Source: a virus (lineage: Duplodnaviria > Heunggongvirae > Uroviricota > Caudoviricetes). Taken from it: 14,242 bases of DNA. The translations under genes and the position numbers were made by a program. The number at the start of each line of letters is the position of its first letter. Positions within the stretch are counted from its first letter, which is position 1. Shown one piece after another: positions 988 to 14,242 of this stretch. The stretch covers positions 1 through 14,242 of the IMG/VR virus record IMGVR_UViG_3300029567_000055; one strand, 5' to 3'. A model generated the notes under the pieces. The model saw only the letters and a list, made by a program, of their open reading frames with translations. It was not told the origin of the DNA and made no database searches.

Positions 988-1338
988 ATGCCATCACGAA
1001 TCCCCCGCGCATGCCGTAAGCGAGGTTGCGCAGGCACGACAACAGACAGCTCTGGCTACTGCGATAAACATCGGGGTGAAGGCTGGGTGCAGCACCAGCG
1101 CGGACTGAGCCGCCACCAGCGTGGCTATGGCTCAAAATGGACGGTGATTCGAGCCCGTATTCTGAAGCGCGATAAAGGTCTGTGTCAGTTGTGTCTGCGT
1201 GTCGGTGTGGTGCGCGAGGCGAAAACTGTCGACCACATCATCCCGAAAGCACATGGCGGAACAGATGCAGACAGCAACCTGCAGAGTCTGTGCTGGCCCT
1301 GCCACAAAGCGAAAACAGCGCGCGAACGAATCAGGTGA
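988..1338 (+). CDS. HNH endonuclease (terminase-associated)
   Basis: ATG at 988 follows AAGGA (976-980). The translation has Cys pairs (CRKRGCAG...CDKH; CQLCL...CWPCH) and the HNH core ...TVDHIIPKAHGG...N...CHKAK. It sits directly upstream of the terminase small subunit, as in HK97-like cos phages. Confidence 0.8.
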   Translation: MPSRIPRACRKRGCAGTTTDSSGYCDKHRGEGWVQHQRGLSRHQRGYGSKWTVIRARILKRDKGLCQLCLRVGVVREAKTVDHIIPKAHGGTDADSNLQSLCWPCHKAKTARERIR

Positions 1339-1485
1339 TAATTATTCTCACTTGTGGGGAGGGGCGGGTAAAATCCCTGCAGCCCTGGCTGCTCAGTACC
1401 GCCGCCTGACCTTTCCTCGCATCGCCGCAGGTTCGAAAACTTTTTTTTGGGAATGCGATCAAACGATTGATAGGTAAAACCGATT
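1339..1485 (+). other. Putative cos/packaging-initiation region (intergenic HNH-terS)
   Basis: A 147-bp non-coding gap between the HNH and terS genes, with a G-rich tract gtggggaggggcggg (about 1354-1368) and a T8 run (1441-1448). The assignment rests on position only. Confidence 0.3.
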
Positions 1486-1968
1486 ATGTCAGGACCCCCG
1501 AAAACCCCGCCACGCCTGCATTTGATACGAGGCAACCCATCAAAGCGCCCCGTTAAAGACCCCAAAAAAACCGCTAAAAAGGACGAAAAAGGTCTCCCTA
1601 AAATTCCGCAACATTTAGGGGCGCAGGGGAAGTACTGGTTCAGGCGAATGGCGGAAGAACTGAATGCGGAAGGGATCATTTCTCAGCTTGATGCGCGTGC
1701 ACTCGAGTTGCTGGTGGAAGCCTACACCGAATACCGGCATCACTGCGAAATACTCGATGTTGAGGGTTATACCTACCGCACGGAAACGCAGAACGGTGAT
1801 GTGCTGATTAAGGCACACCCGGCTGCTGCGATGAAAGCGGATGCCTGGAAGCGGATCCGGGCGATGCTTGCAGAGTTTGGTATGTCACCGGCAAGCCGGG
1901 CGAAAGTAAATACCGCCGGACCGGATGATGTTGATCCGCTGGCGGAACTTTTAAAAGCGAGAGACTGA
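1486..1968 (+). CDS. terS: Terminase small subunit, P27 family
   Basis: The 160-aa product has a basic Lys/Pro-rich N-terminus (KRPVKDPKKTAKKDEKGLPKIP) followed by ...YWFRRMAEEL...LDARALELLVEAY..., typical of P27-family TerS. Its stop overlaps the terL start as ATGA at 1966-1970. Confidence 0.8.
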   Translation: MSGPPKTPPRLHLIRGNPSKRPVKDPKKTAKKDEKGLPKIPQHLGAQGKYWFRRMAEELNAEGIISQLDARALELLVEAYTEYRHHCEILDVEGYTYRTETQNGDVLIKAHPAAAMKADAWKRIRAMLAEFGMSPASRAKVNTAGPDDVDPLAELLKARD

Positions 1969-3725
1969 TGGCAAAAGTGGCTGACGGGATCCGCTACGCC
2001 GAACGTGTTGTTGCAGGAGAAATTGTCGCTGGCGAATTTGTCCGTCTGGCCTGCCAGCGTTTTCTTGATGATCTGAAGTACGGCGAAGAGCGGGGGATTT
2101 ATTTCAGTGAACCCCGTGCGCAGCACATCCTGAATTTCTACAAATTTGTGCCCCATGTAAAAGGGGCGCTGGCAGGCCAGCCCATTGAACTGATGGACTG
2201 GCATGTATTTATTCTCATTAATATTTTTGGTTTTGTCATTCCGCTGGTCAATGAAGAGACCAGGGAAGTTGTTATGCGCAGCGATGGCAGCGGACGTCCG
2301 GTGATGGTGCGCCGGTTCCGGACGGCGTACAACGAAGTCGCCCGTAAAAACGCAAAATCAACCCTGTCATCGGGTATCGGTCTGTATATGACGGGGGCAG
2401 ATGGTGAAGGCGGGGCTGAGGTGTATTCAGCCGCAACCACGCGTGACCAGGCCAGAATCGTGTTTGAAGACGCCAAAAATATGGTCAGAAAAGCCCGGTC
2501 GACACTCGGGCGATTGTTTGATTTCAACAAGCTGGCGATTTACCAGGAGCAGAGCGCATCAAAATTTGAACCGCTTTCTTCGGATGCAAACAACCTGGAT
2601 GGTCTGAACATCCACTGCGCCATTATTGATGAGCTGCATGCACATAAAACCCGCGACGTGTGGGACGTTCTGGAAACGGCAACTGGTGCCCGTCTGCAGT
2701 CCCTGTTATTTGGTATCACCACGGCTGGCTTTAACAAGGAAGGGATTTGTTACGAGCAACGCGATTACGCCATCAAGGTATTGCGTGGCTATAACAGTGA
2801 CGTGGAGGGCGCGGTAAAAGACGACTCTTACTTTGCGATCATTTACACGCTCGATGAGGGAGATGATCCGTTTGATGAAACGGTCTGGCAGAAAGCGAAT
2901 CCCGGCCTGGGCATCTGTAAACGCTGGGATGATTTGCGTCGTCTGGCGAAAAAAGCGAAGGAGCAGGTTTCTGCGCGGGTGAATTTTTTCACGAAACACA
3001 TGAATGTGTGGGTCACTGCCGAATCTGCCTGGATGGACATGATTAAGTGGGAGAAGTGCGAATACATTGCTCCACAGCATGAGCTGAAAACATATCCCAT
3101 GTGGGTCGGTGTAGACCTTGCTCATAAGATTGATATCTGTGCGGCGGCAAAACTCTGGCGAACCGATAACGGACATGTTCATGCTGATTTTAAATTCTGG
3201 CTCCCGGAAGGACGGCTGGAGCGGTGCTCGCGGCAGCAGGCAGAACTTTACCGGAAATGGGCGGAGATGGATAAGCTCATCCTGACGGATGGTGATGTTA
3301 TCGATCATGCTCAGATAAAAAGTGACTTACTGGAATGGATTGGTGGTGAAAACCTGAGGGAGCTGGGATTTGACCCGTGGAGTGCAATGCAGTTCAGTCT
3401 GGCTCTGGCTGAAGAAGGGATACCGCTGGTGGAAGTTCCGCAGACGGTCCGCAATCTGTCAGAGGCTATGAAGGAAACGGAATCACTGGTCTATGCCGGG
3501 CGTTTTCACCACAGCAATCACCCGGTCATGAACTGGATGATGTCTAACGTTACGGTAAAACCGGACAAAAACGACAATATCTTCCCGAACAAATCCACGC
3601 CTGAAGCCAAAATCGACGGTCCTGTTGCGATGTTTACAGCAATGAGCCGGATGCTGGTCAATGGCGGTGAACCGGAGCCGGATCTGTCTGAGCATCTGGT
3701 CAGCGTTGGTATTCGCTCGCTTTAA
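1968..3725 (+). CDS. terL: Terminase large subunit (HK97-like, Terminase_1 type ATPase-nuclease)
   Basis: The 585-aa ORF contains [18 protein letters not shown] (Walker-A-like), ...[13 protein letters not shown] (Walker B / DExH-like) and a C-terminal nuclease-like region. It is translationally coupled to terS. Confidence 0.9.
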
Positions 3726-3736
3726 CCGAGGGCATT

Positions 3737-3919
3737 ATGTTTCTGATAATTCTCACGCCACTGGTGGGCGTGCTGGGGGCGCTTTTGCTGGCGTATGGCG
3801 CCTGGCTGATTTATCCCCCGGCAGGTTTTGTTGTTGCCGGGGCGCTGTGTCTGTGCTGGTCGTGGCTGGTTGCGCGTTATCTCGATCGCGGTCACCGGGT
3901 CGCCTCTGGAGGTGAGTAA
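3737..3919 (+). CDS. Small membrane protein, 2 predicted TM helices (60 aa), unknown function
   Basis: ATG at 3737 follows GAGGG (3727-3731). The translation shows two hydrophobic helices ([23 protein letters not shown] and [17 protein letters not shown]) and a charged tail. Its TAA overlaps the portal ATG (TAATG at 3917-3921), indicating translational coupling. Confidence 0.5.
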
Positions 3920-5160
3920 TGTTTTTCCAGGGGCTTTTTCAACGCAAAAATAACACCCCCGTCACAACGCCCGGGATGCTTGCGGAAGAGCTGGGGTTGT
4001 CATACGACACCTATACCGGAAAGCGGATCAGCAGCCAGCGGGCCATGCGGCTGACGGCGGTCTATTCCTGCGTCAGGGTGCTGGCTGAGTCTGTTGGTAT
4101 GCTGCCCTGCAGTCTCTACAAAATCAGCGGCACCCTTAAAACACGGGCGGTGGATGAACGGCTGCATAAGCTGATTTCGGCAAAACCCAATGGCTACATG
4201 ACGCCGCAGGAATTCTGGGAACTGGTTATCGTCTGCCTGTGTCTGCGGGGTAATTTTTACGCCTACAAGGTAAAGGCACTGGGGGAAGTGGTGGAGCTTC
4301 TTCCGATAGATCCGGGCTGTGTGGAACCGAAGCTGAACAGCCAGTGGCAGCCGGTTTATCAGGTGACGTTTCCGGATGGTTCCGTGGATGTGCTGACCCA
4401 GAATGAAATCTGGCATGTGCGTACCCTGACGCTGGATGGACTTGTCGGTCTGAATCCCATTGCATATGCGCGCGAGGCCATTTCACTGGCAGCGGCAACC
4501 GAGGAGCATGGTGCCAGATTGTTTGGCAATGGCGCGGTAACATCCGGTGTGTTGCGTACGGATCAACAACTTTCTGACCAGGCTTATGCGCGTATCAAAA
4601 AGGATTTTGAGGAACGGCATGTCGGGCTGGGAAACTCTCATCGTCCGATGATTCTGGAAATGGGGCTGGACTGGAAAACGGTGGCACTGAATGCCGAGGA
4701 CAGCCAGTTCCTGGAAACCCGCAAGTTTCAGCTGGAAGAAATCTGTCGCCTGTTCCGCGTGCCGCTGCATATGGTGCAGAACACCGATCGCGCCACCTTC
4801 AACAATATTGAAGAGCTGGGGCTTGGTTTCATTAACTATTCCCTTGTGCCGTATCTGACCCGTATTGAGCAGCGGATCAATACAGGGCTGGTCAGGGAGA
4901 GCAAGCAGGGAAAATTTTACGCCAAGTTTAATGCCGGAGCATTGTTGCGTGGCGACATGAAATCCCGCTTTGAAGCGTATGCCACGGGGATCAACTGGGG
5001 GATTTATTCCCCTAATGACTGCCGTGATCTGGAAGATATGAATCCCCGACCGGGCGGTGATGTGTATCTGACACCGATGAACATGACCACCAGTCCCTCT
5101 GCTGGCGATGACAACGGTAAGAAAAAGGAGAGTGGAGATGCAGACAAAACAGCGTCTTGA
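3919..5160 (+). CDS. Portal protein, HK97 family
   Basis: A 413-aa ORF immediately after terL in the canonical position, with the size and sequence character of HK97-family portals. Its 3' end overlaps the protease gene. Confidence 0.85.
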   Translation: MFFQGLFQRKNNTPVTTPGMLAEELGLSYDTYTGKRISSQRAMRLTAVYSCVRVLAESVGMLPCSLYKISGTLKTRAVDERLHKLISAKPNGYMTPQEFWELVIVCLCLRGNFYAYKVKALGEVVELLPIDPGCVEPKLNSQWQPVYQVTFPDGSVDVLTQNEIWHVRTLTLDGLVGLNPIAYAREAISLAAATEEHGARLFGNGAVTSGVLRTDQQLSDQAYARIKKDFEERHVGLGNSHRPMILEMGLDWKTVALNAEDSQFLETRKFQLEEICRLFRVPLHMVQNTDRATFNNIEELGLGFINYSLVPYLTRIEQRINTGLVRESKQGKFYAKFNAGALLRGDMKSRFEAYATGINWGIYSPNDCRDLEDMNPRPGGDVYLTPMNMTTSPSAGDDNGKKKESGDADKTAS

Positions 5161-5788
5161 TATACCGCTGAACCTGAAATCCGTCAGTGATTCCGGGGAA
5201 TTTGAAGGTTACGGTTCTGTTTTTGGTGTTAAGGACAGCCACGATGATGTGGTGGTCCCCGGAGCCTTTACCACAACACTCCAGAAATGGAGCGAAAAAA
5301 AGGCGCTGCCTGCGTTGCTCTGGCAGCACCGCATGGATGAGCCCATCGGTGTGTACACCGAAATGAAAGAAGATGATGTCGGGCTTTATGTCAGGGGACG
5401 ATTACTCATTGATGATGATCCCCTGGCAAAACGTGCACATGCCCATATGAAGGCCGGTTCTTTAACCGGCCTTTCTATTGGCTACATCCTGAAAGACTGG
5501 GAGTACGACCGGGAAAAAGGGGTATTCCTGCTGAAAGAGATCGACCTGTGGGAGGTCAGTCTGGTGACGTTTCCTTCCAATGATGAAGCACGCATCAGCG
5601 ATGTGAAAAATGCGCTGGCGCGTGGGGAGATCCCTGATCAGAAAATTATTGAGCGGGTCCTGCGCGATGTTGGACTCTCGCGAACCCAGGCCAAAGCATT
5701 CATGGCCGGGGGATATGGCGCTTTATCCCTGCGTGATGCTGAGGATGTGGATGCCGCACTGAATGCACTGAAAAATCTTAAATTTTAA
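5138..5788 (+). CDS. Prohead maturation protease, HK97 family (S78/U35)
   Basis: ATG at 5138 follows AAGGAG (5126-5131). The product MQTKQRLDIPLNLKSVSDSGEFEGYGSVFGV.DSHDDVV.PGAF is the characteristic N-terminus of HK97-type prohead proteases. The gene lies between portal and capsid. Confidence 0.85.
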   Translation: MQTKQRLDIPLNLKSVSDSGEFEGYGSVFGVKDSHDDVVVPGAFTTTLQKWSEKKALPALLWQHRMDEPIGVYTEMKEDDVGLYVRGRLLIDDDPLAKRAHAHMKAGSLTGLSIGYILKDWEYDREKGVFLLKEIDLWEVSLVTFPSNDEARISDVKNALARGEIPDQKIIERVLRDVGLSRTQAKAFMAGGYGALSLRDAEDVDAALNALKNLKF

Positions 5789-5801
5789 TCAGGAGTAAAT
5801 A

Positions 5802-7028
5802 ATGGCTGTTGATATTAAAGACGTTGAACAGGTCGCGCAGGATTTGCAGCAGAAGTTTGACGATTTTAAGGCAAAAAACGACAAGCGCATTGACGCGATC
5901 GAACAGGAAAAAGGCAAGCTGGCCGAACAGGTGGAAAGCCTGAACGGGCAAATCAGCGAGCTGGAGAACCTGAAAAGCGACCTGGAAAAAGAGCTGGCAG
6001 ACATCAAGCGTCCGGCAGGCGGCACGCAAAATAAAGTTGCCGGTGAACACAAAGAAGCGTTTATCGGATTTATGCGCAAGGGGCGTGAAGACGGTCTGCG
6101 TGAACTTGAACGTAAGGCGCTTCAGGTAGGTAATGATGAAGATGGTGGTTATGCCATTCCGGAAGAACTGGATCGTACCATCCTGACGCTACTGAAAGAT
6201 GAGGTGGTGATGCGCCAGGAAGCCACTGTGATCACCCTCGGTGGCTCGGATTATAAAAAACTGGTGAATCTGGGCGGCACAACGTCCGGATGGGTGGGGG
6301 AAACGGATGCTCGTCCGGAAACCGCCACCTCAAAACTGGGTCTGATTGAACCCTTTATGGGGGAAATCTACGGCAACCCGCAGGCCACCCAGAAAATGCT
6401 CGATGATGCTTTCTTCAATGTGGAAGACTGGATCAACAGTGAGCTGGCGCTGGAATTTGCCGAGCAGGAAGAAATTGCCTTTACCAGTGGCGACGGCAGC
6501 AAAAAACCAAAAGGTTTTCTGGCTTACGAGTCCACCGATGAAGATGACAAGACCCGTGCGTTTGGCAAACTTCAGCACATTGCTTCCGGTGCGGCTTCCG
6601 GCGTGACTGCCGATGCGATCATTAAACTGATTTACACCCTGCGCAAGGCGCACCGCAGCGGCGCGAAGTTTATGATGAACAACAGCAGCCTGTTTGCCAT
6701 TCGTCTGCTGAAGGATAACGACGGAAATTATCTGTGGCGTCCGGGTATTGAGCTGGGTCAGCCTTCTTCTCTGGCAGGGTATGGCATCGTTGAGAATGAA
6801 CAGATGCCGGATATTGCTGCCGATGCAAAAGCCATTGCGTTTGGTAACTTCAAACGTGGCTATACCATCGTTGATCGCATCGGTACCCGTATCCTGCGCG
6901 ATCCGTACACCAATAAACCGTTTGTGGGTTTTTACACCACCAAGCGAACCGGCGGTATGCTGGTGGATTCTCAGGCGATTAAGCTGATGAAAATTGGGGC
7001 CGCAACCCGCCAGAAAGCCGCTGCGTAA
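5802..7028 (+). CDS. Major capsid protein, HK97 fold, with N-terminal coiled-coil delta (scaffold) domain
   Basis: ATG at 5802 follows AGGAG. The first ~100 aa are heptad-rich and charged (DLQQKFDDFKAKNDKRIDAIEQEKGKLAEQVESLNGQISELENLKSDLEKELADIK). The remainder has the size and composition of an HK97-type capsid protein. No separate scaffold gene is present. Confidence 0.9.
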   Translation: MAVDIKDVEQVAQDLQQKFDDFKAKNDKRIDAIEQEKGKLAEQVESLNGQISELENLKSDLEKELADIKRPAGGTQNKVAGEHKEAFIGFMRKGREDGLRELERKALQVGNDEDGGYAIPEELDRTILTLLKDEVVMRQEATVITLGGSDYKKLVNLGGTTSGWVGETDARPETATSKLGLIEPFMGEIYGNPQATQKMLDDAFFNVEDWINSELALEFAEQEEIAFTSGDGSKKPKGFLAYESTDEDDKTRAFGKLQHIASGAASGVTADAIIKLIYTLRKAHRSGAKFMMNNSSLFAIRLLKDNDGNYLWRPGIELGQPSSLAGYGIVENEQMPDIAADAKAIAFGNFKRGYTIVDRIGTRILRDPYTNKPFVGFYTTKRTGGMLVDSQAIKLMKIGAATRQKAAA

Positions 7029-7040
7029 TGCGGTTTTTTA

Positions 7041-7062
7041 TGCCCGCACAGTGTTGCGGGCA
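7041..7062 (+). promoter_or_regulatory. RNA stem-loop immediately upstream of the connector-gene RBS (8-bp stem tgcccgca/tgcgggca, 6-nt loop)
   Basis: A perfect 8-bp inverted repeat at 7041-7048 and 7055-7062. The 3' arm abuts GGAG (7063-7066) and the ATG at 7073. A weak ccgc/gcgg stem plus T6 (7018-7039) lies just upstream, spanning the capsid stop codon. Confidence 0.35.
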
Positions 7063-7072
7063 GGAGTTTCTG

Positions 7073-7390
7073 ATGGCAGCAATAGTGGAAAAACTCAGGG
7101 CGCAGTGCCGTATTGATACAGATGATGCAACTGATGATGAGTTACTGATGCTGTATTTCCGGGCTGCCTGCCGCAAGGCAGAAAATTTTATCAACCGTAA
7201 GCTTTATGAGGAGACGGTGCCGGAAGGTGATCCTGACGGGGTGCTTATAGCTGATGATGTTTTGCTGGCGCTCATGTTGCTGGTCGGACACTGGTACGAA
7301 AACCGGGAAAATTCCTCAGATGTCAGCAAGGCACCAGTTCCGTTTGGTTTTTCTTCTCTGCTGGAGCCTTATCGTTTTATTCCTTTGTAG
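7073..7390 (+). CDS. Head-tail connector protein (gp6-like / Phage_connect_1 type)
   Basis: ATG at 7073 follows GGAG. The product MAAIVEKLRAQCRIDTDDATDDELLMLYFRAACRKAENF matches the L..K.HLRID.DD.D..I...I.AA pattern of gp6-like connectors. It lies directly after the capsid gene. Confidence 0.65.
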   Translation: MAAIVEKLRAQCRIDTDDATDDELLMLYFRAACRKAENFINRKLYEETVPEGDPDGVLIADDVLLALMLLVGHWYENRENSSDVSKAPVPFGFSSLLEPYRFIPL

Positions 7391-7398
7391 GAGGAACC

Positions 7399-7737
7399 AT
7401 GCAGGCGGGCAGATTACGTGATCGCGTAACTATTCTGAATGTCACCACCGTCCGTTCTCCGTCAGGGCATCCGGTGGAGACAATGACGGAGGGGGCAACC
7501 GTATGGGCAGAAGTTAAGGGGATCAGCGGGAGGGAGAGAATATCAGGAGGTGCAGAAACCGCTCAGGCTACGGTCAGAGTCTGGATGCGATTTCGGCGCG
7601 ATGTGACAGCGACTTCACGTCTGAAAGTGCTGACCGGTGCATTTAAAGGGGTCACTCTTGGTATAGAAGGGCCACCAATACCGGATGCACGCGCCACCCG
7701 GCTTGAAATGCTCTGCAGTCTGAAGGGGAATGTGTGA
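7399..7737 (+). CDS. Head closure / head-tail joining protein (Phage_H_T_join type)
   Basis: ATG at 7399 follows GGAGG. The product MQAGRLRDRVTI...VWAEVKGISGRE...RVWMRFRRDV...RLEMLC fits the head-closure family profile. Its stop overlaps the next gene's start. Confidence 0.7.
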   Translation: MQAGRLRDRVTILNVTTVRSPSGHPVETMTEGATVWAEVKGISGRERISGGAETAQATVRVWMRFRRDVTATSRLKVLTGAFKGVTLGIEGPPIPDARATRLEMLCSLKGNV

Positions 7738-8183
7738 TGGATTTCAGTCTTGATTTTTCAGGTCTGGCGGATATTGCACGGGATCTGGAGACGCTCAGCA
7801 GGGCAGAAAACAATAAGGTTCTGCGCGATGCCACCCGTGCCGGTGCTGAAGTTATGCGGGATGCAGTTGTTGAACGTGCGCCGGAGCGAACCGGGAAACT
7901 GAAGAAAAATGTGGTTGTTCTCACGCAGCGTTCAAAGCGTCGGGGGGAAATTATCTCGGGTGTCCACATTCGCGGACGGAACCTGCGAACCGGAAACAGT
8001 GATAACAGCATGAAAGCCAGCGATCCCCGAAATGCGTTTTACTGGCGCTTTGTGGAGCTGGGAACGATAAACATGCCCGCGCATCCGTTCATTCGCCCGG
8101 CTTTCGATACGACAGAGGAACTGGCAGCACAGATTGCCATACAGCGAATGAATCAGGCTATTGATGAGGTCTTAAGTAAATGA
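7737..8183 (+). CDS. HK97 gp10-family protein (neck / tail-completion component)
   Basis: ATG at 7737 overlaps the upstream TGA (7735-7737); a GTG at 7734 is an alternative start. The motifs ...RAPERTGKLKKNVVV... and ...YWRFVELGTINMPAHPFIRPA are characteristic of the HK97 gp10 family. Confidence 0.75.
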   Translation: MDFSLDFSGLADIARDLETLSRAENNKVLRDATRAGAEVMRDAVVERAPERTGKLKKNVVVLTQRSKRRGEIISGVHIRGRNLRTGNSDNSMKASDPRNAFYWRFVELGTINMPAHPFIRPAFDTTEELAAQIAIQRMNQAIDEVLSK

Positions 8184-8524
8184 GGGAAGCCACACTGTAT
8201 TCCCTGCTGTCTCAACTGGCCGGAGGACAGGTTTATCCTTATGTGGTCCCGCTGACGGAGGGAAAGCCTGCGGTATCTCCGCCGTGGCTGGTGTTTTCTG
8301 TGGTGTCTGACACGGCGTCTGATGTGCTTGATGGTCAGGCTGAATCCAGAATTACCGTGCAGATCGATGTCTGGGCAACAGTACCTGATGACGCAGATGA
8401 TATCCGTGAGCAGGCGCTTGATGCGGTAAGGCAACTTGCACCCTCCGTTATTTCTAAAACTCAGGGTTATGATCCTGATTCCCGTCTGAGCAGAGCCACG
8501 CTTGAATTTCAGGTAATAGCCTGA
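8180..8524 (+). CDS. Tail terminator / tail-completion-like protein (DUF3168 or gpU-like, tentative)
   Basis: ATG at 8180 overlaps the upstream stop (ATGA). The 114-aa product lies between the neck genes and the major tail gene, the position occupied by U-like tail terminators. The family assignment is by position and size. Confidence 0.5.
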   Translation: MREATLYSLLSQLAGGQVYPYVVPLTEGKPAVSPPWLVFSVVSDTASDVLDGQAESRITVQIDVWATVPDDADDIREQALDAVRQLAPSVISKTQGYDPDSRLSRATLEFQVIA

Positions 8525-8544
8525 GGTCGTTAATGATTTTACCC

Positions 8545-8571
8545 ACCCGCCGCTGGCGGGTTTTTTATTTT
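8545..8571 (+). terminator. Intrinsic (rho-independent) terminator
   Basis: A GC stem cccgcc (8546-8551) / ggcggg (8555-8560) with loop gct, extended by a45:t61, followed by TTTTTTATTTT (8561-8571). It lies in the gap between the DUF3168-like gene and the major tail gene. Confidence 0.6.
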
Positions 8572-8583
8572 CAGGAGACGAGT

Positions 8584-9288
8584 ATGTCCTCTAATTTTGA
8601 GCGTTCGCAACTGACGAAAATTATGATTTCGTCTGCACCGGTAACAGCAGAAACCCTGGATTCTGCCAGCTATCTTGGCCTGAGCTGTACAATCAAAGAG
8701 GTGCAGTTTACCGCAGGACAAAAGCAGGATATTGATGTCACCACGCTGTGTTCTGTTGAGCAGGAAAATATTAACGGCCTTGGTGCCGCGTCAGAGATTT
8801 CCATGTCAGGCAACTTTTACCTCAATGCTGCCCAGAACGCGTTGCGCAGTGCCTATGACAATGACACCACGTATGGCTTTAAAGTTATTTTTCCGTCAGG
8901 CAACGGATTTACCTTTATGGCAGAGGTGCGTCAGCATACCTGGTCTGCAGGAACTAATGGTGTTGTGGCTGCAACGTTTTCCCTGCGCCTGAAAGGTAAA
9001 CCTGTGCTGACGACAGAGCCGCTGAAAGTGAAGGTCGATTTAAACAGCACGCTGCAGGTTTCTGCCGGAGCGAAACTCGAAATGGTGGTTGAGGCTGCCG
9101 GTGGTGTGCCGCCTTATTCTTATGTCTGGAAGAAAGGTAGTTCTCCTGTTTCCGGACAGACGGCGGCAACATTCAGTAAGGCATCAGCAGCATCAGGTGA
9201 TGCCGGTGCGTATACCTGCGAGATTTCTGATTCAGCAAGCCCTGTTAACAAGGTGACCTCCACTTCCTGCACTGTTACCGTCAGTTAA
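8584..9288 (+). CDS. Major tail (tube) protein with C-terminal Ig-like domain
   Basis: ATG at 8584 follows CAGGAG (8572-8577), downstream of the terminator. The N-terminal ~150 aa are tail-tube-like. The C-terminal ~90 aa (LQVSAGAKLEMVVEAAGGVPPYSYVWKK...GDAGAYTCEISD...CTVTVS) has the I-set/Big-like Ig signature (W...Y.C). Confidence 0.75.
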   Translation: MSSNFERSQLTKIMISSAPVTAETLDSASYLGLSCTIKEVQFTAGQKQDIDVTTLCSVEQENINGLGAASEISMSGNFYLNAAQNALRSAYDNDTTYGFKVIFPSGNGFTFMAEVRQHTWSAGTNGVVAATFSLRLKGKPVLTTEPLKVKVDLNSTLQVSAGAKLEMVVEAAGGVPPYSYVWKKGSSPVSGQTAATFSKASAASGDAGAYTCEISDSASPVNKVTSTSCTVTVS

Positions 9289-9302
9289 TGAGGATAGATG
9301 TG

Positions 9303-9674
9303 ATGACTAAAAATATCCGCAATCTGGCACTGGCAACGATGTCGGGGTTTCGCCATAAAACTGTTGATGTGCCTGAATGGGAAGGGGCAACGGTTGTATT
9401 ACGGGAACCTTCTGCAGAAGCCTGGTTGCGCTGGCAGGAGATCGTTAAAGCAAAAGATGATGAGACACCGTTATCCGTTGCGGAGCGCGCCCGCCGAAAT
9501 CTGGAGGCAGATGTTGAACTGTTCATTGATGTTCTGTGTGATACCGGACTGCAACCTGTATTTTCAGAGGATGATCGTGAACAGGTGATTGCCGTGTATG
9601 GCCCGGTGCATGCGCGGCTTCTTCGGCAGTCTCTGGAACTGATCAGTGATGCCGGCGAGGTTAAAAAAAAGTAG
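9303..9674 (+). CDS. Tail assembly chaperone (lambda G-like), frame-0 product
   Basis: ATG at 9303 follows AGGAT (9291-9295); an in-frame ATG at 9288 overlaps the upstream stop. The ORF ends ...EVKKK-TAG at 9672-9674, directly on an A8G slippery run. It lies immediately upstream of the tape measure gene. Confidence 0.75.
   Translation: MTKNIRNLALATMSGFRHKTVDVPEWEGATVVLREPSAEAWLRWQEIVKAKDDETPLSVAERARRNLEADVELFIDVLCDTGLQPVFSEDDREQVIAVYGPVHARLLRQSLELISDAGEVKKK
9665..9671 (+). promoter_or_regulatory. Programmed -1 ribosomal frameshift slippery heptamer A_AAA_AAG (G/GT-type)
   Basis: Frame-0 codons are AAA(9666-8) AAG(9669-71) TAG. The -1 frame is blocked by TAA at 9662-9664 but open from 9665 to 9976, so a slip on this heptamer fuses the chaperone to the downstream ORF. 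Confidence 0.65.
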
Positions 9675-9976
9675 AGCTTCCGGGGATGCGTTTTCTGATG
9701 ATGCTGGCGCTCAGGATGGGGCGCACATTGTCAGAGTTACGCCGGGAAATGTCCGCATCAGAAATCATGATGTGGGCAGAATTTGACAGGTACAGCCCGC
9801 TGGGTGACGAGCGGGCTGATATCCGGGCTGCCCAGATAGTTTCTGCGGTTTACGGTGCGCAGGGTGTCAAAGTCCCACTGAATGATGCGCTTCTTCAGTG
9901 GGAACAAGAGCAGACAGAAGGCGTCTCAGATCCATTTGCCGGACTGGAAAACGCGCTTTTAATAGTGTCTCAGTGA
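9665..9976 (+). CDS. Tail assembly chaperone frameshift extension (lambda T-like part of a G-T fusion)
   Basis: This is the -1 frame relative to the chaperone, open 9665..9976. It has no Shine-Dalgarno of its own before the first ATG at 9686. The predicted fusion junction is ...EVKKK-K-VELPGMRFLMM.... Confidence 0.6.
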   Translation, partial: KKVELPGMRFLMMLALRMGRTLSELRREMSASEIMMWAEFDRYSPLGDERADIRAAQIVSAVYGAQGVKVPLNDALLQWEQEQTEGVSDPFAGLENALLIVSQ

Positions 9977-9984
9977 GTCAACAT

Positions 9985-10006
9985 AACCGCTTCGGCGGTT
10001 TTTTTC
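9985..10006 (+). terminator. Intrinsic terminator with UUCG tetraloop
   Basis: Stem aaccgc (9985-9990) / gcggtt (9995-10000) with loop ttcg, followed by a T-run through 10005. It lies between the G-T extension stop (9976) and the tape measure start. Confidence 0.6.
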
Positions 10007-10015
10007 GTCCGGAGA

Positions 10016-13000
10016 ATGAGTGTGGCGACATTACGTGAACTGATTATTAAAATCTCGGCAAATTCCCGGTCATTCCAGTCAGAGATCTCCCGGGCTTCGC
10101 GTATGGGGCAGGATTACTACCGTACCATGCAGAACGGAGGCCGGCAGTCCGCTGCTGCATCCCGTGAAATGCGGCGTGCACTGGCAGAAGTGACGGATCA
10201 GATAAATACAGCTAAATCTTCGGCACTGAATATGGCGGGGGCATTTGCCGGAGCTTTTGCTACNNNNNNNNNNGTCATCTTATTTCTCTCGCCGATGAGT
10301 GGAATTCAGTAAATGCCCGTCTGAAGCAGGCTTCACAGTCCAGTGATGATTTTCAGGTATCACAACGTGAATTAATGGCAATCAGCCAGAGAACGGGAAC
10401 GGCGTTTTCTGATAACGCCAGCCTTTTTGCCCGCTCTGCAGCTTCCATGCGGGAGTATGGCTACAGTTCTGAGGAGGTACTGAAAGTCACCGAGGCGATC
10501 TCCACGGGCCTGAAATTATCCGGTGCCAGTACAGCAGAAGCCAGTTCGGTGATCACGCAGTTCAGTCAGGCACTGGCGCAGGGAGTGCTGCGCGGTGAAG
10601 AATTTAACTCTGTGAATGAGAACGGCGATCGTGTTATTCGTGCGCTGGCTGCGGGAATGGGTGTTGCCCGTAAGGATCTGAAGGCCATGGCGGATAACGG
10701 AAAACTGACCGCCGATAAGGTTGTTCCTGCACTGATTAGTCAGCTTGGGGCGTTGCGTGATGAATATGCAGCAATGCCTGATACTGTTTCATCCTCTGCA
10801 ACCAAAGTTGAAAACGCCTTTATGGCCTGGGTTGGTGGTGCGAACGAGGCAAGCGGAGTGACAAAGACACTCACCGGGGTGTTGAATGGTGTTGCAGACA
10901 ATATTGATACCGTGGCTGCTGCAGCTGGCGCACTGGTTGCCGTCGGGGTAGCCCGATATTTTGGCAATATGGCGTCGTCTGCTGGATCTGCAACTGCCGG
11001 ATTAATTACTGCAGCCAGAAACGAAGTGGCTCTTGCTGAAGCGCAACTTCGGGGGACACAGATAGCAACCGCCAGGGCGCGTGCGGCGGTTTATCGTGCG
11101 CAACAGGCGGTTGTTGCTGCTCGCGGTACCGAAAGGCAGGCCGCAGCAGAAGCGAAGCTGACAGCTGCCCAGGCGTCACTTACCCGTAATATTGCGGCCA
11201 GAACAGCGGCACAGACAACGCTGAATACTGTCACGTCAGTGGGGAGTCGTCTGTTAAGTGGTGCGCTGGGGTTGGTTGGTGGTGTGCCGGGACTCGTCAT
11301 GCTGGGGGCGACGGCCTGGTACACGATGTATCAGAATCAGGAGCAGGCCAGAGAATCTGCACGCCAGTATGCCGCAACAATCGACGAAATTCGCCAGAAA
11401 ACGTCGGCAATGTCGCTTCCTGAAGCGTCAGATAATGAGGAAAAGACGCGGCAGGCACTTGATGAGCAAAACAGGTTAATTGACGAGCAGAAAAGTAAGA
11501 TTAAATCCTTACAGGAAAAAATTGCTGGCTATCAGTATGTGCTGGCAAACCCGGGCTGGACAACCGATAACGGTTTTATGATTAACCACATGACGTCGGT
11601 AAAAACTGTCACAGAAGGGCTTGCAGAAGCAACAAATCAACTGGCAGTTGAACAGTCCCGTCTCACACAAATGCAGGGCAAAGCGCAATCCATTCAGGAT
11701 GTGCTTGCCGGGCTGGAGGAGCGACGGGTGGCGTTGATCCGTCAACAGGCCGCGGAACAAAACAAAGCGTATCAGTCCCTGTTGATCATGAATGGGCAGC
11801 ATACCGAGTTTAATCGCCTTCTCGGGCTCGGTAATGAATTACTTCAGCAGCGACAGGGGCTGGTGAATGTACCGTTACGGCTACCACAGGCAACCCTGGA
11901 TGATAAACAGCAGACCGCACTGAATAACAGCGAGCGCGAACTGGCTCTGTCCCGCCTGAAGGGGGAAGCCCGTGAGCGTGCCCGCCTGGGTTATGCTGCG
12001 GATGATCTCGGCTTTGTGGGAGAGGCGTATCAGACAGCCAGACAGAATTATATCAATAACTCACTGGATGCCTGGCGAAATAACCAGGCAAATAAACCCA
12101 AAGCGCATAAAAAGACCGAAGCGGAAAAAACAGAAGATATTTATAAACGGCTGATTAAACAGCAAAAAGAACAAATAGCACTGGCAGGGCAGAATACTGA
12201 ACTGGCTAAGATGAAATATCAGGTCAGTCAGGGCGAATTATCAACCCTGTCAGAAGCGCAGAAAAAAACGCTTTTGCAGAATGCAGCACTCATCGACCAG
12301 AAAAAGATTCGTGAGCAGCTTGCTGCGTATGAGAGCAGTCTGGCGGACAGTAATGCCAGTGCCCGGGCATCTGACGACGCGCAGTTGCTGGGATATGGTG
12401 AAGGCTCACGGATGCGTGAACGACTCCAGGAAATGTGGAGTATCCGGCAGACGTTTGAGCAGAAAAATAACGAACTGCTGAGACAGTATCAGGCCGGAGA
12501 AATTGAAGAAGCCCTGTGGAAACAGGAGAAAGAACTGAATAAAAAATATCTGGAAGAGCGTCTCAGCGATCAGCAGGATTATTATGCAAAGGCCGATGCT
12601 TTACGTAATAACTGGAATGCCGGACTCCAGGAAGGACTGACCAACTGGGCAGACAGTGCCACCGATTATGCTTCACAGGCGGCAGATGCTGTCGTTTCCA
12701 CGATGGACGGGCTGGTATCAAATATTTCCGATGCACTGGCCGGGAATGTTGTGGAGTGGAGGAACTGGGGGAGTTCAGTTCTCCGGGAAGTTTCAAAAAT
12801 TCTGATGAATGCAGCCATTGTTAACGGACTGAAATCACTCTCCGGTGCCGGAGGGTGGCTTGGTACGGTCGGCGGATGGATTTCGGGGGCGGTGGCAAAC
12901 GCAAAAGGTGGTGTTTACACATCGGCAAATCTGAGTGCTTACAGTAACACTATTGTGGATACACCGACGTATTTTGCTTTTGCGAAAGGTGCCGGGCTGA

Positions 13001-13257
13001 TGGGTGAGGCCGGGCCTGAAGCTATCATGCCACTGACACGGGCAGCGGACGGCTCTCTTGGGGTCAGAGCCATTGGCAATGTGAATGGTGGCGGTGGATT
13101 TGTTTATTCTCCCGTGTATCACATCAGCATTCAGAATCAAGGGAGCAATGGCGAGATAGATACGCGCTCAGCCAGGGGACTGGTGGATCTGATCGACAGC
13201 AGGGTTGTGTCAATTATGCAGTCATCGCGTCGGGATGGAGGATTATACAGTGCCTGA
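10016..13257 (+). CDS. Tail tape measure protein (lambda H-like), interrupted by a 10-N assembly gap
   Basis: ATG at 10016; a GTG at 10022 has better spacing from GGAG (10011-10014). The frame after the gap is open from the Ns through the listed 10375 start, reading ...HLISLADEWNSVNARLKQASQSSDDFQVSQRELMAISQ.... The product is long, Ala/Gln-rich and coiled-coil in the middle. The C-terminal part (...NWADSATDYASQAADAVVSTMDG...GGLYSA) resembles the lambda gpH C-terminus. The ORF track's 10016..10312 and 10375..13257 pieces are one gene. Confidence 0.8.
10264..10273. other. Assembly gap (run of 10 N)
   Basis: A literal nnnnnnnnnn in the sequence; the true length is unknown. The apparent frame change across it is therefore uninformative. 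Confidence 0.95.
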
Positions 13258-13591
13258 GCCTGAAGTTTTTAACTGGATCCCCCGTGAGGGGATGGAGACG
13301 ACACGAAAGCCATCAGTTATTACGGTAAAGTTTGGTGACGGATATGAACAGCGACGGGCTGGTGGTCTGAATGCGGATCTGAAAACGTTTAAACCGGTAT
13401 TTCGTGTCACAGATGAATACTCCCGTGCCGCGCTGGACAGTTTTTTATCCCGTCATGCCGGGATTCGTGCTTTTTTGTGGCGTCCGCCAAAACACAACAG
13501 GACTGTCCGGGTTGTCTGCAGGGAGTGGAGCATTTCGGATAATGCCATGTATACCGATTTTAACTGTACCTTTGAAGAGGTCACTCACTGA
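13250..13591 (+). CDS. M: Minor tail protein M (lambda gpM-like)
   Basis: GTG at 13250 follows GGAGG (13237-13241) and overlaps the tape measure stop. The product ...VKFGDGYEQRRAGGLNADLKTF...FLWRPP...VVCREWS... parallels lambda M (FGDGYSQRAPAGLNANLKTY...FLWTPP...VTCAKWS) as I recall it. Its stop overlaps the next ATG (ATGA at 13589-13593). Confidence 0.8.
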   Translation: MPEPEVFNWIPREGMETTRKPSVITVKFGDGYEQRRAGGLNADLKTFKPVFRVTDEYSRAALDSFLSRHAGIRAFLWRPPKHNRTVRVVCREWSISDNAMYTDFNCTFEEVTH

Positions 13592-14242
13592 TGCAGGATA
13601 TACAGCAGGAAACACTCAATGAGTGCACTAAAACGGAGCAATCCGCGCTGGTCGTGCTCTGGGAAATTGATCTGACAGAGGTCGGCGGAGATCGTTATTT
13701 CTTCTGTAATGAGCAGAACGAAAAAGGTGAAGCAGTCACCTGGCAGGGGCGGCAGTATCAGGCCTATCCCATTCAGGGAAGTGGATTTGAGATGAACGGT
13801 AAAGGAGCCAGTGCAAGGCCAACTCTGAAAGTCTCTAATCTGCACGGCATGGTCACAGGGATGGCGGAAGATCTGCAGAGTCTGGTCGGCGGAACGGTGG
13901 TCCGGCGTAAGGTTTACGCCCGTTTTCTGGATGCGGTGAACTTCGTCAACGGAAACAGCGAAGCCGATCCGGAGCAGGAGGTAATCAGCCGCTGGCGCAT
14001 CGAGCAGTGCAGCGAACTGAGCGCGGTGAGTGCCTCCTTTGTACTGTCCACGCCGACGGAAACGGATGGCGCTGTTTTTCCGGGGCGCATCATGCTGGCC
14101 AACACCTGCACCTGGACCTATCGTGGTGATGAGTGTGGTTATAGCGGTCCGGCGGTCGCGGATGAATATGACCAGCCGACCTCCGATATCACGAAGGATA
14201 AATGCAGCAAATGCCTGAGTGGCTGTAAGTTTCGCAATAACG
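13591..14242 (+). CDS. L: Minor tail protein L (lambda gpL-like), 3'-partial
   Basis: ATG at 13591; the frame is open to the window end. My translation MQDIQQETLNECTKTEQSALVVLWEIDLTEVGGDRYFFCNEQNEKGE...CTWTYRGDECGYSGPAVADEYDQPTSDITKDKCSKCLSGCKFRNN is near-collinear with lambda gpL as I recall it, including the C-terminal Cys cluster. Confidence 0.9.
   Translation, partial: MQDIQQETLNECTKTEQSALVVLWEIDLTEVGGDRYFFCNEQNEKGEAVTWQGRQYQAYPIQGSGFEMNGKGASARPTLKVSNLHGMVTGMAEDLQSLVGGTVVRRKVYARFLDAVNFVNGNSEADPEQEVISRWRIEQCSELSAVSASFVLSTPTETDGAVFPGRIMLANTCTWTYRGDECGYSGPAVADEYDQPTSDITKDKCSKCLSGCKFRNN

Follow-up and report, generated by a model that had tools for sequence, protein, structure and literature searches.

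The 14,242-nt stretch of phage DNA analysed here (the window, meaning the stretch at its full length) most probably encodes the two tail assembly chaperones of a temperate, HK97-like E. coli siphophage, in which a G-T fusion protein is made via a -1 frameshift on the heptamer A_AAA_AAG. The observation behind this reading, which an earlier note had made from the letters of the DNA, is confirmed as real, and the interpretation that the note gave to it, a programmed frameshift of the G/GT type, is supported. We found that the window derives from an E. coli HK97-like prophage, matching phages phi467 and Evi at 99%.

All features described in the following lie on the plus strand. The tail assembly chaperone gene (G, HK97 gp13-like, 123 aa) spans 9303..9674, with GAGGA located 8 nt upstream of ATG 9303. 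This start is also the PGAP start in AR_0089, and the protein matches phrog_344 'tail assembly chaperone' in addition to the Pfam family described below. An alternative in-frame ATG is found at 9288, where it overlaps the stop of the major tail gene. The T segment is read in the -1 frame over 9671..9976 and comprises 101 codons (VELPGMRFLMM...IVSQ) and TGA. The predicted G-T fusion, join(9303..9671, 9671..9976), has 224 aa when counted from ATG 9303 and 229 aa from ATG 9288, which is close to the product of about 230 aa that had been expected. A length of 224 is shared with HK97 gp14 (a 674-nt join) and with phrog_14766. The predicted sequence at the G-T junction is ...GEVKKKVELPGMR, and the predicted junction peptide of the fusion is EVKKKVELPGMR.

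Upstream, the pair is flanked by the gene for the major tail (tube) protein and downstream by the tape measure gene. The former lies at 8584..9288 and encodes a C-terminal Ig-like domain (phrog_158 'major tail protein', 9.7e-110; Pfam Ig_2, Ig_3 and Phage_TTP_11; PGAP start). The tape measure protein gene lies at 10022..13257 (Pfam Phage_HK97_TLTM, 8.2e-94, as well as TMP_3 and Tape_meas_lam_C) and is a single CDS of 3228 nt in AR_0089. In the window, the tape measure gene appears split, and we considered whether this is a second frameshift or a pseudogene; the split is instead due to an assembly gap, with a 'CG' replaced by 10 N at 10264-10273. A terminator-like hairpin with a T-run (AACCGCTTCGGCGGTT TTTTTCG) follows T at 9985..10007, ahead of the tape measure gene, and is comparable to the terminators that are annotated just upstream of the tape measure genes of HK97 and mEp234. 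The AR_0089 neighbourhood is 98.5% identical over window positions 7388-14242. There, the genes are arranged in the order terminase, portal, HK97-family prohead protease, major capsid, connectors, tail completion and major tail, continuing with 'phage tail assembly chaperone', 'phage tail assembly protein T', tape measure and genes similar to lambda M/L/K/I/J.

The family membership of both proteins is established by profile searches. The upstream ORF matches Pfam PF06222 Phage_TAC_1, the HK97 gp13 family, over its full length (E=2.4e-58, 195.9 bits against a cut-off of 25). For 9686..9976, a profile search against families similar to lambda gpT had been suggested; this search places the translation in PF06223 Phage_tail_T, which contains lambda T and the C-terminus of HK97 gp14 (E=3e-19, 69.6 bits against a cut-off of 25.9). 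HK97 itself scores similarly, with 203.3 bits for gp13 on PF06222 and 73.4 bits for the C-terminus of gp14 on PF06223, and lambda T reaches 2.1e-14 on the latter. Furthermore, a single profile, phrog_14766 ('tail protein', 224 positions), matches G at positions 1-121 and T at positions 129-220. As this profile spans both ORFs, fusions of exactly this kind are already present in phage records. No NCBIfam model matched the G or the T protein. BLASTP revealed no similarity between the G protein of the window and lambda G (E=4.9) and none between the T protein and lambda T, whose kinship is visible only at the profile level. Since PF06222 and PF06223 are shared with HK97 gp13/gp14 whereas lambda G is found in PF06894, we conclude that the locus is a member of the HK97 gp13/gp14 family, which works like lambda G/GT but does not belong to the gpG family at the sequence level.

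The anatomy of the slip site is likewise established. Read again from the sequence and recomputed, the 3' end of the chaperone ORF is GTT AAA AAA AAG TAG, with GTT at 9660, in the wider 0-frame context GGC GAG GTT AAA AAA AAG TAG AGC TTC CGG GGA TGC. The earlier description of an A8G run at the end of the ORF, with A_AAA_AAG in phase at 9665-9671, is correct base for base. The run of 8 A occupies 9663..9670, is followed by G 9671 and is also a candidate site for slippage of RNA polymerase. The slippery heptamer at 9665..9671 is in X_XXY_YYZ phase, with the 0-frame codons AAA at 9666-9668 and AAG at 9669-9671, and the TAG stop of the chaperone (9672..9674) lies directly 3' of it. A TAA at 9662..9664 closes the -1 frame and marks the upstream limit of the productive slip window. 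From 9665, the -1 frame is open as far as the TGA at 9974-9976, and ATG 9686 is in the same frame. The 0 and -1 frames thus overlap by 10 nt, and the heptamer, located at the last two sense codons, occupies the one slot within this overlap that is in phase, in agreement with the claim that it is the sole productive slip point. Slippage at each of the three Lys codons yields one and the same product, ...GEVKKK/VELPGMRFLMM..., and the same fusion protein results if one A is inserted in the A8 run.

Heptamers of this type are not rare in the window. AAAAAAG occurs six times compared to an expected number of 3.06, and canonical heptamers are in phase at 13 of 3609 codon positions of the plus-strand genes, which corresponds to the random rate of 1/256. 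The heptamer alone is therefore not beyond chance, and the evidence must come from its position and from comparison, and it does: what is above chance is that the heptamer is located at the end of a tail chaperone gene, within the 0/-1 overlap, and that it is conserved in relatives. The prohead protease ORF contains a further A_AAA_AAG in phase, at 5296-5302. We consider it incidental, as the -1 frame stops there after 12 codons and the heptamer is absent in the AR_0089 homolog.

To describe the conservation of the layout, we used 11 phage loci and 33 loci from other bacterial species, gathered with four closer T sequences. In a tblastn search, the predicted fusion matched 226 phage records, and the listed matches that cover most of the query consist of two pieces, as a frame change would give. 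In the 33 loci surveyed from other species, G is disrupted in one (L026, from an insect symbiont), and in each of the 32 intact loci T is read in frame -1 when G is taken as frame 0, the core of the slip site being A_AAG or A_AAC. The same layout is found in phage relatives down to 37% identity. The arrangement is reportedly conserved among tail chaperones of long-tailed phages, for which Xu, Hendrix and Duda are said to have described the G/GT-type frameshift in 2004. The assignment of the window to this arrangement, made in the earlier note, is borne out by the layout of all 32 intact relatives and by the position of the pair between the major tail and tape measure genes.

The slip site itself is conserved to different degrees. 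A_AAA_AAG followed immediately by TAG or TAA is found at 12 loci of other species, including the genera Symbiopectobacterium, Serratia, Brenneria, Pectobacterium, Providencia, Morganella, Xenorhabdus and Zophobihabitans, among others. A_AAA_AAG is also present in JLK-2012 and the Stx phages, in Bordetella PHB09 and in Burkholderia phages (37% identity). In a comparison of 13 A_AAA_AAG loci, the columns AAAAAAGTA are invariant and the flanks vary; the last two Lys codons are AAA AAG in all 13, and in all 13 enterobacterial A_AAA_AAG loci examined the stop follows directly after the heptamer. The length of the A-run ranges from 6 to 8 among relatives that keep the heptamer, with 8 A in seven of the 12 A_AAA_AAG relatives from other species. 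The other loci of the survey include seven with the HK97-type G_GAA_AAG, two with GTG GAA AAG CCG TAA, nine with N_GCA_AAG or A_GAA_AAG followed by TAA, and two with G_GGA_AAC, and the slip site of phage mEp390 is the lambda-type G_GGA_AAG.

As several relatives, HK97 among them, have no canonical heptamer, a tandem slip is not the only way in which this family can shift. This offers a minor mechanistic lead, in that A_AAG with a stop behind it is all that some relatives retain. The sufficient signal of this enterobacterial clade might be a slip of a single tRNA-Lys on A_AAG with the stop in the A site, and the heptamer and the A8 run of the window might then act on top of this signal, such that the GT:G ratio would be set at two levels and be tunable by the length of the run. 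We put this forward as a speculative idea with a small chance of being right. It is suggested by the nine relatives that keep only N_GCA_AAG-TAA or A_GAA_AAG-TAA.

Frameshifting has been measured for homologous sequences. With a GST-MBP reporter in E. coli, Antonov et al. (2013, PMC3711429) examined two cassettes drawn from an HK97-related 'phage tail assembly chaperone' cluster of 41 members. The cassette ...AGA_AAA_AAG_TAG_CCC... resulted in 7% ± 0.79 frameshifting (PMC3711429, Suppl. Table S2) and the cassette with G_GGA_AAG CCG TAA in 6% (PMC3711429). We found that the 7% cassette is 100% identical to phage JLK-2012 (L004, 946-1020). It has the core AAAAAAGTAG in common with the window, and 50 of 75 bases are identical overall.

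No element that might stimulate the shift was found around the site. A hairpin predicted 16 nt after the heptamer is no better than the hairpins of shuffled sequences (z=-1.33), the consensus fold of 12 relatives has 4 invariant pairs and -2.16 kcal/mol and shows no covariation, and an Rfam scan of the whole window gave zero matches. We also rejected GAGG at 9657-9660 as a Shine-Dalgarno-like stimulator, since it is too close to the heptamer, ending 4 nt before it, and is not conserved in relatives. As no stimulator was found, the efficiency would rest on the heptamer and the adjacent stop, which is in keeping with a low efficiency, of a few percent, that is reached unaided. An efficiency in this range is probable at the exact site of the window.

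According to the mechanism that we propose, most ribosomes would translate 9303..9674 and terminate at the TAG, resulting in the 123-aa chaperone. A few percent of the ribosomes would slip back by one base on A_AAA_AAG (9665-9671), where the single tRNA-Lys of E. coli (anticodon UUU) could re-pair from AAA-AAG to AAA-AAA, presumably by simultaneous or P-site slippage. The shifted ribosome would bypass the TAG and read GTA GAG CTT CCG GGG ATG... up to 9976, which would yield the G-T fusion of 224 aa. As in lambda G/GT, the G part may bind the tape measure protein and the T part may recruit the major tail protein. The slip rate would then fix a low GT:G ratio, and neither protein would be expected in the virion if the pair behaves as in lambda. 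This role in assembly, and the need for a certain ratio, would apply to the pair in the window in so far as the analogy holds.

The same fusion protein could also be made from an altered transcript, if RNA polymerase added one A on the A8 run at 9663-9670 and the resulting A9 transcript was read normally. With eight A, the run falls among the homopolymers of eight or more that are typical sites of transcriptional realignment, and in reporters the frameshifting rises with the length of the poly-A run, from 10% with 7 A to 40% with 9 A and 63% with 11 A (PMC3711429). A run of 8 A is, moreover, shared by more than half of the A_AAA_AAG relatives from other species, as given above. Because of the A8 run, transcriptional slippage could therefore contribute, and the protein would be identical by both routes. 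As the main route, however, we regard it as unlikely. The heptamer is kept in phase while the length of the run varies between 6 and 8, and the cassette with 7% frameshifting carries merely 6 A. Family members that have no homopolymer are known, with G_GGA_AAG (6% in the reporter), GCA AAG TAA or G_GAA_AAG. Furthermore, slippage of the polymerase needs neither the 0-frame phase nor the final G, yet both are invariant. We thus favour ribosomal over transcriptional slippage as the probable main route to the fusion.

Another explanation is that G and T are independent genes, that the heptamer is incidental and that T (96 aa) starts at ATG 9686, or at 9698 or 9701, perhaps by re-initiation. PGAP and several phage records do annotate a separate CDS from ATG 9686, this ATG is located 12 nt after the TAG, and in-phase canonical heptamers occur in the window at the rate expected by chance. 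Eight of the 13 A_AAA_AAG loci have an ATG where the window has ATG 9686; it is missing in the remaining five, which have ATT, ACA, ACC, AAT or CTA instead. It is also replaced by GTA, ACN or CTN in HK97-, mEp390- and Burkholderia-type relatives, and in one locus (L043) the conserved T core is not preceded by any ATG. In the 20 nt preceding ATG 9686 (aaaaagtagagcttccgggg) there is no Shine-Dalgarno sequence, and the sole G-rich stretch lies directly against the ATG. Such a sequence does precede the neighbouring genes, namely gaggatagatgtgATG for G, caggagacgagtATG for the major tail gene and ccggagaatgagtGTG for the tape measure gene. The claim that the downstream ORF has no Shine-Dalgarno of its own therefore holds after these 20 nt were checked against the neighbouring genes.

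The most telling evidence comes from the short linker between the slip site and ATG 9686. In the -1 frame, the protein is conserved from the slip site onwards, already ahead of ATG 9686. A Pro codon located three codons past the slip, at 9680-9682, is kept in 11 of 13 A_AAA_AAG loci with synonymous variation (CCG in five, CCT in three, CCC in two and CCA in one), and the same Pro is invariant in a protein alignment of nine phages. Between the closing stop and this codon, there is no ATG, GTG or TTG in the -1 frame. Synonymous variation of the Pro codon with no start upstream of it establishes that the linker is translated in the -1 frame, and since it is translated, only a frameshift or an equivalent edit of the RNA can deliver ribosomes there. 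In addition, the heptamer and the stop are invariant across genera, a homologous cassette frameshifts at 7% and HK97 gp14 is annotated as a fusion. As the explanation of the locus, independent expression of T is thus very improbable; some re-initiation 12 nt past the TAG may occur besides the frameshift.

That the locus is a remnant of a decaying prophage, with an inherited arrangement that is neither expressed nor needed, is scarcely credible: the window is draft-like with a run of N inside the tape measure gene and G is disrupted in at least one relative (the insect symbiont locus L026), but the run of N is an assembly gap and not a mutation, the structural genes in the window are all intact ORFs, and the 689-nt G-T block is 96-99% identical in the isolated or induced E. 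coli phages phi467, Evi and the vB_Eco series.

The frameshift predicted for the HK97-like phage described here is mostly left out of annotations. The prophage block is present in 901 of 5426 complete E. coli genomes (about one in six), always on the chromosome. RefSeq/PGAP and most phage records describe the locus as two CDS, 'phage tail assembly chaperone' and 'phage tail assembly protein T' or 'DUF4035', the latter at 9686..9976, and a collection of about 15 billion proteins contains no entry with exactly the 224-aa fusion sequence. The earlier note was right that the annotation of two independent genes misses the fusion. The main value of our finding is thus one of annotation, as the biologically correct description would be a join(9303..9671, 9671..9976) feature. 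The element is of an already known kind, whose family has been annotated (HK97 gp14) and measured (the homologous cassette), and the finding does not advance an open question. In lambda, both the G:GT ratio and the yield of phage have been connected with the modification state of tRNA-Lys (PMC3296357). As both slipping codons are read by tRNA-Lys(UUU), the phage in the window may be at least as sensitive to tRNA modification in the host.

Lastly, we compared the locus to known systems. The closest described pair is HK97 gp13/gp14 (NP_037708 / NP_037707), which has the same combination of PF06222 and PF06223, the same position between major tail and tape measure genes, a fusion of 224 aa, the -1 direction and a K-V junction, at about 61-63% amino-acid identity within the clade. 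In RefSeq, HK97 gp14 is a two-piece join with the note "translated due to a -1 frameshift"; Bcep176 gp69' is a two-piece -1 frameshift join as well, and mEp234 bears an equivalent note. HK97 differs in that its two frames overlap by 52 nt compared to 10 nt in the window, and in that its only site containing A_AAG is G_GAA_AAG, which is non-canonical and precedes a Ser codon, whereas the window has A_AAA_AAG followed by TAG. Furthermore, the moron gp15 is located between gp14 and the tape measure gene of HK97, where the window has only the terminator-like hairpin. The 'Phage_TAC' cassette of E. coli O157/Stx phages (JLK-2012 gp56/gp55) is of the same family and shares the A_AAA_AAG TAG core and the continuation KKV..P..RFLM; it differs from the window in its protein sequence (63% identity), in the A-run (6 compared to 8) and in having ATT at the position of ATG 9686.

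Compared to lambda G/GT, the logic, the gene position, the T domain in PF06223 and the slip of tRNA-Lys from AAG to AAA are alike. The proteins at the upstream position differ, as gpG matches only PF06894 (Phage_TAC_2) whereas G of the window matches only PF06222, and the heptamer of lambda is G_GGA_AAG with a 0-frame stop that is not adjacent. Frameshifting in lambda amounts to about 4% and depends on tRNA-Lys (PMC3296357), and G:GT is produced at a ratio of about 30:1, with chaperone roles for both proteins (Atkins et al. 2016, PMC5009743). A further case is dnaX of E. coli, with a stimulated frameshift of the A_AAA_AAG type, where a shift of about 50% involves a Shine-Dalgarno-like element about 10 nt 5' of the heptamer and a downstream hairpin, neither of which is detectable or conserved in the window. 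The two also differ in outcome: the dnaX shift shortens the product, whereas the shift predicted for the window lengthens it.

The slip site predicted to join the tail assembly chaperone gene G (9303..9674, plus strand) to the -1-frame segment T is the heptamer A_AAA_AAG at 9665-9671. When comparing this junction to related loci, we find that many relatives carry no canonical heptamer (L012, which is HK97, at 1830-1860; L014, L016-L019, L021, L022, L006, L023, L029-L032, L034, L036, L038 and L039). The HK97-type slip region reads CGG GAA AAG TCN (G_GAA_AAG), and the loci from Klebsiella, Pantoea, Erwinia and Phytobacter have GCA AAG TAA or GAA AAG TAA. Common to these relatives without a canonical heptamer is the core A_AAG, often with a stop codon directly 3' of it. 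In the Klebsiella-type loci, an ATG follows shortly after the stop (TAAAAATG); because of this closely placed start codon, coupling or re-initiation is an alternative to frameshifting there.

Two individual relatives need separate mention. In Candidatus Symbiopectobacterium endolongispinus (L026), the slip site is absent at the expected place and the reading frame of G, upstream of the T homolog, is broken, with an ORF of 74 aa; the prophage of this insect symbiont thus seems to be decaying. The contig labelled Mycobacterium sp. MBM and that of Pseudomonas weihenstephanensis (L044/L045) have exactly identical G-T junction sequences, which suggests that the 2.3-kb Mycobacterium contig is contaminated or mislabelled.

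Public records are not uniform for the T ORF (9686-9976): it is named 'phage tail assembly protein T', 'DUF4035 domain-containing protein' or 'hypothetical protein', its annotated starts give forms of 96, 92 and shorter, and in the phage record ON470580 the region is split among three CDS, all called 'tail assembly chaperone'.

The window contains further in-phase heptamers. A second A_AAA_AAG lies at 5296-5302 within the prohead protease ORF (5108..5788), and the -1 frame entered from it closes after 12 codons. The matching stretch of the related E. coli prophage in strain AR_0089 (79% identity) does not contain this heptamer, which is thus probably incidental; slippage on it might still truncate a few percent of the protease. 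A lambda-type heptamer, G_GGA_AAG, occurs at 8260-8266 within the tail completion/terminator gene (8180..8524), and from there the -1 frame closes after 14 codons.

Judged by sequence identity, the window and the AR_0089 prophage (L003) are related as mosaics: identity is only 87% in the head/packaging half (988-6996) and 98.5% in the tail half (7388-14242). Positions 6997-7387 (ORF 7028..7390) have no match in the AR_0089 prophage, which carries two small genes at the corresponding place. Within the tape measure gene, a run of 10 N (10264-10273) stands where the AR_0089 homolog has the two bases 'CG', and the gene therefore appears as two ORFs (10016..10312 and 10375..13257). We reject a frameshift or pseudogene here; the run is an assembly or scaffolding gap.

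The major tail protein (8584-9288) has a C-terminal Ig-like domain (Pfam Ig_2/Ig_3) that also resembles Hoc-like decoration families. This domain belongs to the gene's own reading frame, and frameshifting is not its source. Terminator-like hairpins with T-runs lie on either side of the major tail, G and T unit, at 8545-8561 and 9985-10000. Since the former falls within the 5' extension of the longest major tail ORF (start 8533), we favour the PGAP start at 8584. HK97 has a moron (gp15) between gp14, its frameshift extension of the chaperone, and the tape measure gene, whereas the window has none there. Both HK97 and the related phage mEp234 have annotated terminators at places comparable to the two hairpins of the window.
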